64,000 nucleotides of DNA from Escherichia coli (lineage in GTDB: Bacteria; Pseudomonadota; Gammaproteobacteria; Enterobacterales; Enterobacteriaceae), in assembly GCF_002854065.1 (NCBI RefSeq), contig NZ_CP024147.1. One strand, given 5' to 3'. The stretch's first letter is position 1; the number at the start of each line of letters is the position of its first letter. Of the stretch, positions 1 to 42,994 are shown piece after piece. Made by a program: the position numbers and the translations under genes. Below the pieces are notes generated by a model. It saw only the letters and a list, made by a program, of their open reading frames with translations. It did no database searches and was not told the DNA's origin.

Positions 1-163
1 AACCAGACCGGGAGGAATGTTAGCCCCGCGCCGTCGTTAACCAAATCCCACGCCAGGGGAACAGACTGGCGGACCTTCAAAGACGGTCGCACACCGTGTT
101 TGACATAATTTATTGTTTTTTGCTTGCTCTTATTATTGCAGCCGTTAGGGTAATGACTCCAAC

Positions 164-667
164 TTATTGATAGTGTTTTATGTTCAGATAATGCCCGATG
201 ACTTTGTCATGCAGCTCCACCGATTTTGAGAACGACAGCGACTTCCGTCCCAGCCGTGCCAGGTGCTGCCTCAGATTCAGGTTATGCCGCTCAATTCGCT
301 GCGTATATCGCTTGCTGATTACGTGCAGCTTTCCCTTCAGGCGGGATTCATACAGCGGCCAGCCATCCGTCATCCATATCACCACGTCAAAGGGTGACAG
401 CAGGCTCATAAGACGCCCCAGCGTCGCCATAGTGCGTTCACCGAATACGTGCGCAACAACCGTCTTCCGGAGACTGTCATACGCGTAAAACAGCCAGCGC
501 TGGCGCGATTTAGCCCCGACGTATCCCCACTGTTCGTCCATTTCCGCGCAGACGATGACGTCACTGCCCGGCTGTATGCGCGAGGTTACCGACTGCGGCC
601 TGAGTTTTTTAAATGGCGGAAAATCGTGTTGAGGCCAACGCCCATAATGCGGGCGGTTGCCCGGCAT
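164..667 (-). CDS. insB: IS1 InsB (C-terminal part of InsAB' transposase, made by -1 frameshift)
   Basis: 167-aa ORF overlapping insA 3' end in the -1 frame; A6C slippery motif present. Confidence 0.9.
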
Positions 668-861
668 CCAACGCCATTCATGGCCATATCAATGATTTTC
701 TGGTGCGTACCGGGTTGAGAAGCGGTGTAAGTGAACTGCAGTTGCCATGTTTTACGGCAGTGAGAGCAGAGATAGCGCTGATGTCCGGCAGTGCTTTTGC
801 CGTTACGCACCACCCCGTCAGTAGCTGAACAGGAGGGACAGCTGATAGAAACAGAAGCCAC
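586..861 (-). CDS. insA: IS1 InsA (transposition repressor / N-terminal part of InsAB' transposase)
   Basis: 91-aa [25 protein letters not shown]... recognised as IS1 InsA. Confidence 0.93.
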
Positions 862-988
862 TGGAGCACCTCAAAAACACCATCATACACTAAATCAGTA
901 AGTTGGCAGCATCACCAGCTTTACTAATATATTGCAGCTGGACCGCTTACCCTGAATATTCAGGGTAAGCGTGAGAGTTAAAAAAGAA

Positions 989-3268
989 TTACAGCGGTTG
1001 GGTTTGCGCTTCAACCACGGCCAGCGCCACCATGTTGACGATACGACGTACCGATGCGATCGGCGTTAACACGTGAACCGGTTTCGCCACGCCCATCAGC
1101 ACCGGACCGACAGTCACACCTTCCGAGCTGGAAACGCGCAGTAAGTTGTAACTAATGCGGGCAGCTTCCATGTTTGGCATTACCAGAATATTGGCAGAAC
1201 CTTTCAAAGGGCTGTCCGGCATACGGTCGTTGCGAATCGCTTCCACCAGCGCTGCATCGCCGTGCATTTCACCATCAATCATCAGTTCTGGCGCACGTTC
1301 CCTGACCAGTTCCAGCGCCTGACGCATTTTGCTCGACGACGGACAGTCAGAAGAACCAAAGTTGGAGTGCGACAACAGAGCAACGCGCGGCTCAATACCA
1401 AAACGACGGACAGTTTCTGCCGCCATCAAGGTGATCTCCGCCAGCTCTTCTGCGTCTGGTTCGTCATTGACGTAGGTATCGGCAATAAAGGTGTTACCAC
1501 TCGGCAGCAGCAGCGCGTTCATTGCACCTGCGGTGTGAACGCCATCGCGATAACCAAAGACATTTTTCACCACGCTAAAATGTTCATGATAATCACCCAC
1601 CGTACCGCAAATCATTGCATCGGCTTCGCCACGCTGAACCATGATCGCGCCGATCACTGTCGGGTTACTGATCAACGCCCGCTGCGCCTGTTCCTGAGTG
1701 ACGCCGCGACGCTTCATGATCTGGAAGTATTCGGTCCAGTACTCTTTAAAGCGCGGATCGGATTCGTTATTGACGATCTCAAAATCAACGCCCGCTTTGA
1801 TCTGCAAGCCCAGTTTCTGAATGCGCATTTCGATCACGTTCGGACGACCGATAAGGATCGGTTTCGCCAGTCCCAGCGTTACCAGTTCCTGAGTGGCATG
1901 TAGAACGCGCGCCTCTTCCCCTTCCGGCAGAACTACGCGCTTCGGCGCTTTGCGAGCCTGGGAGAAAATCGGCTTCATAAACAGGTTGGTTTTGTAAACG
2001 AACTCAGTCAGCTTGTCGATGTAGACGTCGAAATCAGCAATCGGACGCGTCGCCACGCCCGACTCCATCGCCGCTTTCGCGACCGCAGGAGCGATCTTAA
2101 CGATCAAGCGCGGATCAAACGGTTTTGGAATGATGTATTCCGGACCAAAGCTCAGATCCTGATCGCCATACGCTGAAGCCACCACTTCGCTCTGTTCCGC
2201 ATGGGCCAGTTCTGCAATCGCGCGTACCGCCGCCAGTTTCATCTCTTCGTTGATGGCGGTTGCGCCAACGTCCAGCGCGCCACGGAAGATGAACGGGAAG
2301 CAAAGGACGTTGTTGACCTGGTTTGGATAGTCAGAACGACCGGTGCAGATGATGGCATCCGGACGCACTTCTTTCGCCAGCGGCGGCAGAATTTCCGGTT
2401 CCGGGTTCGCCAGCGCCAGGATCATTGGCGCTCGAGCCATTTTCTTCACCATTTCCTGGGTCAGCACTTTCGGGCCGGAACAGCCGAGGAAAATATCCGC
2501 GCCTTCAATCACATCATCGAGGGTACGTTTGCCGTCATCCACTACCGCATATGCGGCTTTGGTTTCCGCCATGTTTGGCTCACGGCCCTGATAGATAACG
2601 CCTTTTGAATCGCAAACCACGATGTTATGTTTTTGCAGACCCAGCGCGACCAGCAGGTTCATACAGGCGATTGCTGCAGCACCCGCGCCGGAAACCACCA
2701 TACGCACGTCAGAGATGTTTTTCTCCACCACGCGCAAGCCGTTGAGGATGGCGGCAGTGCTGATGATTGCCGTGCCGTGCTGATCGTCGTGGAATACCGG
2801 AATATTCATCCGCTCGCGCAGTTTCTGTTCAATATAGAAACATTCTGGCGCTTTAATGTCTTCGAGGTTGATTCCGCCGAAGGTCGGTTCGAGCGCAGCG
2901 ACGACTTCAATAAATTTGTCCGGGTCGAGTTCATCAACTTCAATGTCAAATACATCAATCCCGGCGAATTTCTTAAACAGAACGCCCTTGCCTTCCATCA
3001 CCGGTTTGCCTGCCAGCGCGCCAATGTTGCCTAACCCCAGCACCGCCGTACCGTTAGAGATCACCGCCACCAGGTTACCGCGCGCGGTATATTTGTAGGC
3101 TTTTAACGGGTCTTTTTCGATTTCAAGACAAGGTGCGGCAACGCCTGGTGAGTAGGCCAGCGCCAGATCGCGCTGCGTTGCCAGAGGCTTGGTTGGAGAA
3201 ACCTGGATTTTCCCTGGAACTGGAAATTCATGGAAATCAAGTGCACTTTGTTTTAACTGGTCATCCAT
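989..3268 (-). CDS. maeB: NADP-dependent malic enzyme (with phosphotransacetylase-like C-terminal domain)
   Basis: 759-aa [26 protein letters not shown]... recognised as MaeB; length matches. Confidence 0.95.
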
Positions 3269-3556
3269 TTGGTTGTTCCTTTCACGTAACGTTCACAAAT
3301 AAAGTGTGTGGGCAACAGCCCCTGCCCACAACGTGGCGCACATTATTACCTTGCCGGAGTCTACAGACTTTGAGCAAGTCCAAACTCTCACCATTAATAT
3401 AATGTTTTGGTAATAATCCTATAACACTGATGTTACCTGCTTAATCCAGCAATACCATGCCTGTCTGCTATGCTTTTTTGATGCGTTTAGCGAAATTTCT
3501 CAGAAGTGTGAATTAACGCACTCATCTAACACTTTACTTTTCAAGGAGTATTTCCT

Positions 3557-4526: not shown

Positions 4527-6530
4527 ATGTCCCGAAAAGACCTTGCCAATGCGATTCGCGCACTCAGTATGGATGCGGTACAAAAAGCCAATTCTGGTCA
4601 TCCCGGCGCGCCGATGGGCATGGCTGATATTGCCGAAGTGCTGTGGAACGATTTTCTTAAACATAACCCTACCGACCCAACCTGGTATGATCGCGACCGC
4701 TTTATTCTTTCCAACGGTCACGCGTCGATGCTGCTCTACAGTTTGCTACATCTGACCGGTTACGACCTGCCGCTGGAAGAGCTGAAGAACTTTCGTCAAC
4801 TGCATTCGAAAACCCCTGGCCACCCGGAAATCGGCTATACGCCCGGAGTTGAAACCACCACCGGTCCTCTTGGACAAGGTTTGGCGAACGCCGTCGGGCT
4901 GGCGATAGCGGAACGTACACTGGCGGCGCAGTTTAACCAGCCGGATCATGAAATTGTCGATCACTTCACCTATGTGTTTATGGGCGACGGCTGCCTGATG
5001 GAAGGTATTTCCCACGAAGTCTGTTCGCTGGCGGGCACGCTGGGACTGGGCAAGCTGATTGGTTTTTACGATCACAACGGTATTTCGATTGATGGAGAAA
5101 CCGAAGGCTGGTTTACCGACGATACGGCAAAACGTTTTGAAGCCTATCACTGGCATGTGATCCATGAAATCGACGGTCACGATCCGCAGGCGGTGAAGGA
5201 AGCGATCCTTGAAGCGCAAAGCGTGAAAGATAAGCCGTCGCTGATTATCTGTCGTACGGTGATTGGCTTTGGATCGCCGAATAAAGCAGGTAAGGAAGAG
5301 GCGCACGGCGCACCGCTGGGGGAAGAAGAAGTGGCGCTGGCACGGCAAAAACTGGGCTGGCACCATCCGCCATTTGAGATCCCTAAAGAGATTTATCACG
5401 CCTGGGATGCCCGCGAAAAAGGCGAAAAAGCGCAGCAGAGCTGGAATGAGAAGTTTGCCGCCTATAAAAAGGCTCATCCGCAACTGGCAGAAGAGTTTAT
5501 CCGTCGGATGAGCGGTGGTTTACCGAAGGACTGGGAGAAAACGACTCAGAAATATATCAATGAGTTACAGGCAAATCCGGCGAAAATCGCTACCCGTAAG
5601 GCTTCGCAAAATACGCTTAACGCTTACGGGCCGATACTACCGGAGCTGCTCGGCGGTTCGGCGGATCTGGCGCCCAGCAACCTGACCATCTGGAAAGGTT
5701 CTGTTTCGCTGAAGGAAGATCCGGCGGGCAACTACATTCACTACGGGGTGCGTGAATTTGGCATGACCGCTATCGCCAATGGCATTGCGCACCACGGTGG
5801 CTTTGTGCCGTATACCGCGACGTTCCTGATGTTTGTTGAATACGCCCGTAACGCCGCGCGGATGGCGGCACTGATGAAAGCGCGGCAGATTATGGTTTAT
5901 ACCCACGACTCAATTGGCCTAGGCGAAGATGGTCCGACGCACCAGGCTGTTGAGCAACTGGCCAGCCTGCGCTTAACGCCAAATTTCAGCACCTGGCGAC
6001 CGTGCGATCAGGTGGAAGCGGCGGTAGGCTGGAAGCTGGCGGTTGAGCGCCACAACGGACCGACGGCACTGATTCTCTCCAGGCAGAATCTGGCCCAGGT
6101 GGAACGTACGCCGGATCAGGTTAAAGAGATTGCTCGTGGCGGTTATGTGCTGAAAGACAGCGGCGGTAAGCCAGATATTATTTTGATTGCCACCGGTTCA
6201 GAGATGGAAATCACCCTGCAAGCGGCAGAGAAATTAGCGGGAGAAGGTCGCAATGTTCGCGTAGTTTCCCTGCCCTCGACCGATATTTTCGACGCCCAGG
6301 ATGAGGAATATCGGGAGTCGGTGTTGCCTTCTAACGTTGCGGCTCGCGTGGCGGTGGAAGCAGGTATTGCCGATTACTGGTACAAGTATGTTGGTCTGAA
6401 AGGGGCAATTGTCGGGATGACGGGTTATGGGGAATCTGCTCCGGCGGATAAGCTGTTCCCGTTCTTTGGCTTTACCGCCGAGAATATTGTGGCAAAAGCG
6501 CATAAGGTGCTGGGAGTAAAAGGTGCCTGA
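4527..6530 (+). CDS. tktB: Transketolase 2
   Basis: ORF-track start 4464 is over-extended into talA; start set at ATG 4527 ([27 protein letters not shown]...) preceded by ggag 4517-4520; 667 aa. Confidence 0.94.
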
Positions 6531-6540
6531 TGGTGATCGC

Positions 6541-6610
6541 CGGATGCTGATTGCCGGATGCGACGCTGACGCGTCTTATCCGGCCTACAGCGTCTTATCC
6601 GGCCTACATG
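6541..6610. repeat. REP/BIME palindromic element cluster between convergent tktB and ypfG
   Basis: gccggatgcgacgctgacgcgtcttatccggcctaca matches REP family; 20-bp unit (g)cgtcttatccggcctaca repeated in tandem at 6571-6590 and 6591-6610. Confidence 0.8.
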
Positions 6611-6624
6611 TCCCGCCATTTTGT

Positions 6625-7668
6625 TTAACGGGTGATCCACAACGTGGGCCAGGCGTCTGGCCCATGCCAGTTATCGCAGGTGGGCTCTGCGGCGTAACGC
6701 ACCAGGCGAAAACGCTGACCGTCAAAGCGCCAGCGCGCCTGAATGCCACAATCGCTTAATCCGCGCCCTTTCGCTAAGGTCACCAGTTCACGCGATTTCT
6801 CATCAAATGTTGCGTTCATCAGTTCCAGTTCATTCGTCTCCTGCCCGTTGTTGAACGGCAAACGCAACCGAACCGGACGCGAGGCCAGTGGCTTTTTACG
6901 CGACACAATCCATGCCAAATCAATGGTGTTATAGGCCCCTGCCTCACAGCTAATCATCATCAGCGCTTTATCATCAGTCAGCGCAGTGACATTCACCTCA
7001 CGACGTAACGGATCAAGCGAGCAGCGCAGACCATTCATCCGCCAGTTTCCATAATCCAGCAAATCGTTGCGTTCTTCGAGTGAGAGTGGCGTCGGCGTTG
7101 GGTTAACCACCGCGACCTCTTTCAGCGCAGGCGCGGGCGGTACGCTGAGCGGCGGTTCGTCCCCTTTCTTTATCCACGCGGTTTCACTGCCAACGCGCTT
7201 TTGCTGAGCATCAATAAACAACAACGCCGCTTTTAAGCCACTCAGAGAAATGGTCTGATTGCCGTCGCGTAAGGTGATCGCCTTCCCTTCCTGAATCATC
7301 TGCAAAAACGCGGTGATGGTTGCCGTATCATCGGTTACTAGTAACCATGGTGAAATCCGCCACTTGTCACCACTTAACGCCAACGGCTCACCATCTAACA
7401 GCAGCCGTGGCGCAATTTCCCCTTCAGACGCATCCGGCGACTTCAACCCGCCGCGCTCAATACGTAAAACGGCATCGGTATGCGCCCCGGCGCTGCGGCT
7501 CAGGGTCATCACCAGTCCATTATGATCGCCCGTATTACGCGCCACGCAGAAGTTTTGGTTATTACAGGTGACCTGCCAGTCGGAAAACGCCCGTTGCGCT
7601 GGTGCCGCCCACACCAAAGACGTCGGCAACAAAGCGAAAAAAAAGAGAAGGAAAATGCGATAGCGCAT
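6625..7668 (-). CDS. ypfG: Secreted DUF1176-family protein YpfG
   Basis: 347-aa ORF with N-terminal signal peptide MRYRIFLLFFFALLPTSLVWA; position matches K-12. Confidence 0.88.
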   Translation of the reverse strand: MRYRIFLLFFFALLPTSLVWAAPAQRAFSDWQVTCNNQNFCVARNTGDHNGLVMTLSRSAGAHTDAVLRIERGGLKSPDASEGEIAPRLLLDGEPLALSGDKWRISPWLLVTDDTATITAFLQMIQEGKAITLRDGNQTISLSGLKAALLFIDAQQKRVGSETAWIKKGDEPPLSVPPAPALKEVAVVNPTPTPLSLEERNDLLDYGNWRMNGLRCSLDPLRREVNVTALTDDKALMMISCEAGAYNTIDLAWIVSRKKPLASRPVRLRLPFNNGQETNELELMNATFDEKSRELVTLAKGRGLSDCGIQARWRFDGQRFRLVRYAAEPTCDNWHGPDAWPTLWITR

Positions 7669-17863: not shown

Positions 17864-17870
17864 GCTGAGT

Positions 17871-17902
17871 GGCCGGATAAGGCGTTCACGCCGCATCCGG
17901 CC
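17871..17902. repeat. REP element
   Basis: ggccggataaggcgttcacgccgcatccggcc, canonical REP palindrome. Confidence 0.85.
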
Positions 17903-17943
17903 ATGATGTCTGATACGGTCTTATCAGCCCTACCCGGCTATTA

Positions 17944-22542: not shown

Positions 22543-22596
<54 letters not shown>

Positions 22597-42887: not shown

Positions 42888-42980
42888 GCCGGATGCGACG
42901 CTTGCCACGTCTTATCCGGCCTACGAATATTATGGATTAACTTCGCGTAGTTCGGATAAGGCGTTCGCGCCGCATCCGAC
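42888..42980. repeat. BIME: two inverted REP elements between yfgD and hda
   Basis: gccggatgcgacgcttgccacgtcttatccggcctac and gtagttcggataaggcgttcgcgccgcatccgac in opposite orientation. Confidence 0.85.
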
Positions 42981-42994
42981 AATAAACACCTTAT

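Follow-up and report, generated by a model that had tools for sequence, protein, structure and literature searches.

A strain-variable 19-bp tandem repeat of a REP arm in the tktB–ypfG spacer of Escherichia coli

The tktB–ypfG spacer and its tandem arrays

In the window, by which we mean the whole 64-kb (64,000-nt) stretch of E. coli DNA that was analysed, tkt, encoding transketolase (K-12 b2465, tktB), ends at position 6530 according to RefSeq and is followed by the convergent gene ypfG, with its stop codon at 6625–6627. The spacer between them is 94 bp long and contains one complete REP, into which the 3' untranslated region of ypfG extends. A preliminary description had placed a tandem duplication within a REP cluster between these two genes, and RefSeq annotation of the orthologous loci confirmed that location. 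The features of the spacer, with the basis for each, were as follows.

6525–6538, + strand: first 14-bp unit, GCCTGATGGTGATC, a degenerate start of a REP left arm (repeat finder and TRF period-14 row)
6528–6530, + strand: tktB stop codon TGA, inside a REP-like left-arm fragment (GCC TGA TG...) (RefSeq orthologous loci and sequence)
6539–6552, + strand: second 14-bp unit, GCCGGATGCTGATT, an orphan left half-arm whose copy number differs among strains
6553–6566, + strand: true REP left arm, GCCGGATGCGACGC, third member of the 14-bp array
6553–6589, − strand: the sole complete REP, 5'-T GTAG GCCGGATAAGACGC GTCA GCGTCGCATCCGGC-3' (inverted repeats, folds and the definition in PMC3333891)
6571–6589, + strand: 19-bp copy 1, comprising the REP 3' arm (6571–6584), CTAC (6585–6588) and A
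6590–6608, + strand: 19-bp copy 2, identical to copy 1 and missing in 1,286 single-copy genomes
6609–6624, + strand: short spacer TGTCCCGCCATTTTGT (comparison with aligned Escherichia whittamii and another non-coli Escherichia genome)
6625–7668, − strand: ypfG (b2466), a DUF1176 protein gene convergent with tktB (ORF list and RefSeq annotation)

A REP is defined by a GTAG 5' of the hairpin foot and an imperfect palindrome with a two-base mismatch (PMC3333891). The element at 6553–6589, lying between the tktB and ypfG stop codons, has both: GTAG (6588–6585) stands directly 5' of the foot and is followed by the stem GCCGGATAAGACGC, and the arms of the palindrome, which falls in the 30–40 nt range, are GCCGGATGCGACGC and GCGTCTTATCCGGC, pairing except at a 2 × 2 mismatch (AA vs GC) and enclosing a 4-nt loop, TGAC on the + strand. 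The element is also extragenic and of high copy number, as a Python scan located other REPs in the window at about 17880–17935, 22550–22590 and 42890–42985. A BIME consists of a REP and an inverted REP (iREP) with a linker; the E. coli spacer has one complete REP, and its second right arm points the same way as the first instead of being inverted. Judged from its sequence, the E. coli locus is best described as one REP flanked on either side by direct repeats of arm fragments and not as a BIME. The term 'REP cluster' was thus an overstatement for one complete REP (6553–6589) accompanied by partial arm copies.

An Rfam scan of the spacer returned only a sub-threshold match to naRNA4 (RF02564; 6532–6585), with 38 bits against a gathering score of 59.5. 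Since the naRNA4 family is itself derived from a REP array, this match did not indicate a separate RNA gene. Promoter and intrinsic-terminator scans of the spacer found nothing, and no T-run follows the hairpin. The NC_000913.3 record as used carried no repeat features at 2581500–2581900 or at 5200–6000. Positions ~5,565–5,669 of that genome are a known REP site, annotated in the public record; the missing REP annotation was therefore uninformative, as the record used was unannotated even there.

The 19-bp unit GCGTCTTATCCGGCCTACA occurs twice head-to-tail, at 6571–6589 and 6590–6608. The two copies are identical in register at 38 of 38 positions, as judged by the sequence, the repeat finder and TRF (period 19, 2.0 copies, 100% matches, score 76), and thus have the head-to-tail arrangement of one unit that characterizes a VNTR. 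The duplication reported earlier at 6571–6610 is real and correctly placed, and it does repeat a REP half-site: the unit corresponds to the 3' arm and CTACA tail of the spacer's one complete REP. Its period, however, is 19 bp rather than 20, and its copies are perfect rather than near-perfect; the near-perfect 20-mers resulted from reading the array one base out of register. A second GTAG and arm (− strand) lie within copy 2, at 6607–6590. The chance expectation for a perfect 19-mer tandem is about 64,000 × 4^-19 (roughly 2e-7) per window, indicating that the array is not a product of chance.

Only this array and the adjoining 14-bp array reached a TRF score of at least 50 in the 64-kb window. 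The 14-bp array, made of REP left-arm units at 6525–6566, is older and less perfect than the 19-bp array, its left-arm copies being alike at only 9–11 of 14 positions. The tktB reading frame ends within the unit GCCTGATGGTGATC, which overlaps its final Ala codon and its stop.

Alleles in E. coli and related species

With a 321-bp query the locus was recovered, in several length classes, from all but one of the 5,426 complete E. coli genomes (5,425). Thirteen alleles were read, and the classes were then counted with junction-specific queries across the 5,426 genomes. The two-copy form was the commonest (60%), with at least two copies of the 19-mer present in 3,288 of 5,426 genomes. A 35-nt query seeded only by arrays of at least three copies identified 8 genomes with three or more, and the sequence was verified in O111 RM9322. 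One copy was found in 1,286 genomes (24%), 267 with a K-12-type REP and 1,019 with a divergent REP (GTCGGATGTGACGCTGGT GCGTCTTATCCGGTCTACA). Strains with the divergent REP include uk_P46212, LF82 and APEC O1:K1:H7, which are phylogroup B2 strains. In 831 genomes (15%), ATCC 25922 for example, the REP is replaced by a BoxC/TMECO triplex-motif element of about 80 bp. This occupant, CCCTCGCCCCTCGGGGGAGAGGGTTAGGGTGAGGGG on the − strand, fits the BoxC/PIT/TMECO consensus CCCTCNCCC-N3-6-GGGNGAGGG-N3-GGGNGAGGG (PMC4666352). Together the allele classes account for 5,405 of the 5,426 genomes. An assembly artefact was ruled out by the presence of the two-copy junction in 3,288 complete genomes.

Copy number among strains, the comparison proposed in the preliminary description, is thus 1, 2 or 3 across the 5,426 complete genomes. 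This is the opposite of the outcome that had been set against the duplication, namely a standard BIME organized in the same way in every strain: copy number varies, and no standard BIME is found.

The BoxC/PIT/TMECO element at tktB–ypfG is of type A and occupies the same site as window positions 6550–6615, so that two unrelated repeat families, REP and BoxC, alternate at one intergenic site. In E. coli uk_P46212, tkt (tktB) is annotated as a frameshifted pseudogene, through either a sequencing error or real inactivation.

The 14-bp unit GCCGGATGCTGATT was present once, twice (CUWW10, 88-3493) or four times (ECZP248). Extra copies occur in ~30 + ~190 genomes, or about 220 of 5,426, the figure of ~190 being approximate as it was taken from identity bands of 95% or more. 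E. coli 88-3493 carries, in addition, a different 10-bp tandem, CTACATGTCC × 2, which starts at the CTAC of the REP and has a 2-nt CC microhomology. In one phasing, its left edge and its joint both fall at the type II site of the REP transposase TnpA_REP, GGCC/TACA (a slash marks a cleavage position or a junction throughout).

Related species were covered by a protein-anchored scan with one genome per species, followed by inspection of the spacer. In many Citrobacter and Pseudescherichia genomes nothing separates the two genes; in these, tktB ends ...GTG CTT AAC GCG TGA and overlaps the stop of the opposite-strand ypfG. In several lineages a BIME is inserted between the two genes. In C. youngae CCUG 30791 and Escherichia SCPM-O-B-8794, the GCC TGA of the REP is the last codon and stop of tktB, and in sister Escherichia the GCC TGA at the tktB end forms the first bases of the z2-type REP. 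REP/BIME insertion appears to have rebuilt the tktB C-terminus (from …KVLNA to …KVLGVKGA), with the last codon and stop coming from the REP, and to have separated tktB from ypfG.

In E. whittamii and SCPM-O-B-8794 the BIME is complete: a z2-type REP, which has one right arm only, is joined by a linker to an inverted y-type REP. E. whittamii and a second non-coli Escherichia contain 39 more bases (GTAGGGCGGATAAGGCGTTTACGCCGCATCC) at the site of 6609–6624. Relative to sister Escherichia, the E. coli alleles lack 39 nt (the y REP) and carry 28 nt more of left-arm repeats. On this alignment, TGTCCCGCCATTTTGT (6609–6624) is the putative remnant left by loss of the inverted y-type REP of the ancestral BIME. 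As the outgroups are single-armed in a full BIME, the single right arm is ancestral and the 19-bp duplication derived within E. coli; this polarity is based on E. whittamii, one further non-coli Escherichia and the divergent-REP alleles, the scan having returned no locus from E. albertii, E. fergusonii or E. marmotae. The BoxC allele was also found in Escherichia sp. E1V33, and the BoxC occupant, being common to this genome and E. coli, is old as well.

The spacer is most probably a decayed BIME, composed of a z2-type REP and an inverted y-type REP and intact in sister Escherichia, in which E. coli dropped the y REP and retained one REP. Direct duplication of the REP 3' arm and its CTACA tail (19 bp) would have taken place in the lineage from which most non-B2 strains descend.

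Slippage and alternative explanations

We compared the flanks of the array over 2,012 bp of tktB and 2,400 bp of ypfG-nudK-aegA. CFSAN061772 (one copy), K-12 MG1655 (two copies) and LF3-1 (three copies) showed 0 SNPs across these 4.4 kb, and the third copy in LF3-1 carries one substitution. O103 RM8385 (two copies) and O111 RM9322 (three copies) differed by 1 + 3 SNPs in the flanks. The three-copy strains BS-04, YA-1 and ij001 share a third haplotype, with 33 SNPs from O111 in tktB. Three-copy alleles therefore lie on at least three haplotypes (O111 RM9322, BS-04/YA-1/ij001 and LF3-1), indicating that expansion to three copies happened at least three times among the 8 genomes. The haplotypes also point to loss to one copy on backgrounds that otherwise carry two. 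Single-copy K-12-type genomes (267) far outnumber three-copy genomes (8), the counts being of genomes and not of events. Copy number thus varies at one locus with independent changes, which is the second hallmark of a VNTR. Recombination could shift alleles among backgrounds and inflate the apparent recurrence, but three copy numbers on identical 4.4-kb flanks are hard to explain in this way.

The array is very probably a short VNTR made from half a REP in a decayed BIME, with its copy number varied by slippage; the slippage is inferred from recurrent gain and loss in the population pattern. Adjacent identical 19-bp copies would permit slipped-strand misalignment during replication, whether by RecA-independent slippage or by sister-strand misalignment, and this probably deleted a copy repeatedly (2 to 1) and more rarely added one (2 to 3). 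REP hairpins are known polymerase pause sites, and the hairpin here probably promotes slippage. Small variable REP (palindromic unit) segments have been attributed to slippage between short repeats (PMC2884548), and copy-number change in tandem arrays by RecA-independent slippage or sister-strand exchange is established (cited in PMC2884548). The spacer is generally unstable, since the 14-bp array varies too (1, 2 or 4 middle units) and 88-3493 has its 10-bp duplication.

The earlier suggestion of a slippage product holds well for the changes in copy number, which were seen on identical haplotypes, but less well for the founding duplication, which has zero junction microhomology: the array is exactly 38 bp long and, in contrast to the 10-bp duplication of 88-3493, is bordered by bases that do not match the ends of the unit. 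Simple slippage usually leaves a few shared bases.

With respect to its effects, we infer that the variation in copy number is near-neutral. RNA folds of either strand predicted that copy 2 pairs with the orphan left half-arm (6539–6549 with 6588–6591 and 6597–6603), giving an 11-bp outer helix stacked under the 14-bp REP stem, that is, a two-tier hairpin. The predicted minimum free energies were as follows.

Two-copy allele, 82 nt folded: MFE −40.9 (+) / −42.2 (−) kcal/mol
One-copy allele, 63 nt folded: MFE −30.3 (+) / −32.5 (−) kcal/mol

All folds were well beyond the shuffled controls (z-scores of −4.7 and −6.7 vs shuffles). Both convergent transcripts would thus carry, at their 3' ends, a two-tier hairpin formed by copy 2 and the older orphan half-arm. 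We treat this predicted structure as a side-effect of arm copying, because copies of a palindrome arm pair by construction and because the numbers of left and right units are uncorrelated.

An alternative is that selection keeps the two-copy form, the longer hairpin better protecting or terminating the 3' ends of the convergent tktB and ypfG mRNAs. REP hairpins are established stabilizers of mRNA 3' ends. Stabilization of mRNA 3' ends is among the roles of REPs given in PMC3479197. A stabilizing role for the tktB and ypfG 3' ends is possible, in line with the improvement in predicted MFE from one copy to two, and the two-copy majority (60%), which is stable across large clades, could reflect selection and not neutrality. 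We nevertheless consider such selection unlikely. The extra helix is expected without it, left and right units show no covariation (left × right combinations of 1×1, 1×2, 1×3, 2×1, 2×2, 4×2 and 0×1 were observed), and strains with one copy (24% of genomes) or lacking a REP altogether (15%) fare well. A broader version, in which half-REP arrays would remodel REP hairpins, orphan half-arms would gain partners and the resulting two-tier hairpins would be selected, so that the 60% frequency reflects selection, seems to us distinctly improbable; the arm duplication could in that case come from REP-transposase-primed copying or from flap misprocessing at a stalled fork.

Another possibility is that TnpA_REP (RAYT), a tyrosine transposase, cleaved single-stranded REP DNA by the hairpin and rejoined it or primed its copying, leaving the array as a footprint. 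TnpA_REP cuts the CTAC-bearing strand at C/T, in TGCC/TGAT and GGCC/TACA (PMC3333891). GGCC/TACA is present inside every 19-bp unit, and TGCC/TGAT is found at 6524–6531, at the tktB stop; published models of BIME diversification and amplification predict local REP addition, and no microhomology of the kind that slippage should leave marks the founding event. On the − strand, moreover, the junction between copies, GACGC/TGTAG, is a C/T step one base before GTAG. This C/T, however, arises at the joint only after duplication. The boundaries in the single-copy form, GAC/GCG and ACA/TGT, are not C/T on either strand, and neither is the novel + strand joint, ACA/GCG; with boundaries at C/G and A/T and a new joint at A/G, the array does not have its joints at the cleavage sites. 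Its unit is half a REP, neither a REP nor a BIME, and the occurrence of 1, 2 and 3 copies on one haplotype, together with the variation of the 14-bp array, requires no enzyme. We therefore hold a transposase footprint to be very improbable.

The two right arms might also be remnants of two REPs, tandem or nested, with the second left arm lost or degraded to 6539–6552. In favour of this are the symmetrical order of the parts (left half, left arm, loop, right arm, right arm) and the nesting of the two-tier hairpin in the predicted fold. In addition, removal of the inner 37-nt REP leaves GCCGGATGC-TGATT-GCGTCTTATCCGGCCTACA, a sequence similar to a REP that has lost 5 nt. Against this, the right arms are identical at 38 of 38 positions whereas the left-arm copies agree at 9–11 of 14. 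Sister species and divergent-REP alleles have the orphan left half or its equivalent with one right arm, indicating that the orphan half predates the second right arm, and the K-12 haplotype is found with one copy as well as with three. None of the 13 E. coli alleles and 24 outgroup loci inspected showed a pair of complete, directly oriented REPs at the site. An origin from two REPs is thus extremely unlikely.

Copy 2 reproduces the right arm's own mismatch bases (TT), indicating that it is a direct copy and not a fold-back of the left arm. A quasipalindrome fold-back template switch was rejected on the same grounds, as it would yield GCGTCGCATCCGGC, whereas copy 2 has the right-arm sequence GCGTCTTATCCGGC.

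Relation to known repeats

Bachellier and Gilson are said to have described E. coli REP/BIME tandem copy number differing among strains. Strains differ in how many tandem REP/BIME units a given locus contains (Ton-Hoang et al., 2012; PMC3333891). The tktB–ypfG repeat shares with these elements the 5' GTAG, the imperfect palindrome with a 2-base mismatch, the z2-like core, the intergenic position between convergent genes and the strain-variable copy number, and in sister species a genuine BIME occupies the orthologous position. It differs in that its unit is a direct half REP of 19 bp, whereas the BIME-2 unit is a whole REP/iREP pair with a linker, and in that the E. coli locus has one complete REP only and no BIME.

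Most catalogued E. coli minisatellites are REP-derived, and REP loci are recognized small variable segments (Touzain et al., 2010; PMC2884548). Like these, the array is a short head-to-tail intergenic repeat with 1–3 copies and recurrent gain and loss on the same background; unlike these, it has a very small allele range dominated by two states, and its 19-bp unit belongs to a hairpin, so that the array alters secondary structure. BoxC/TMECO sites are also known to be variable (Holder et al., 2015; PMC4666352). They are a variable intergenic repeat class as well and lie exactly in the tktB–ypfG spacer in 831 E. coli genomes and E1V33, but they belong to a sequence family unrelated to REP and are absent from the allele of the window.

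Literature searches returned no description of the tktB–ypfG repeat locus or of its use as a typing marker, and nothing specific on regulation involving tktB and a REP near its stop or on half-REP duplications. What is slightly different here is the unit, a directly repeated half REP rather than a REP pair.

The 19-bp repeat matters little by itself. It provides a cheap, PCR-sized length polymorphism with four structural classes (BoxC and 1, 2 or 3 copies), to which the 14-bp array adds alleles, and it roughly separates divergent-REP or BoxC strains from two-copy strains. The proposal that it could serve as a polymorphic marker is thus supported as far as variation is concerned, but the marker is homoplasic, mostly bi-allelic and of low resolving power, and therefore weak for typing. 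The locus is also a compact natural example of BIME decay, in which one REP was lost, arms were partially duplicated on either side and an unrelated repeat took over the site. It is a possible model for hairpin-associated slippage and for any part played by the REP transposase in local REP remodelling.

Elsewhere in the window, a partial left-arm copy in direct orientation, GCCGGATGTTTT (22547–22565), stands ahead of the REP GTCGGATGCGGCGTGAACGCCTTATCCGAACTAC within 22547–22590, and partial arm repeats beside REPs may be common. The two other REP loci are ordinary: 42890–42985 is a complete BIME (iREP ...CTAC, a 23-nt linker and GTAG... REP), and 17870–17935 is a REP pair with a degenerate partner.
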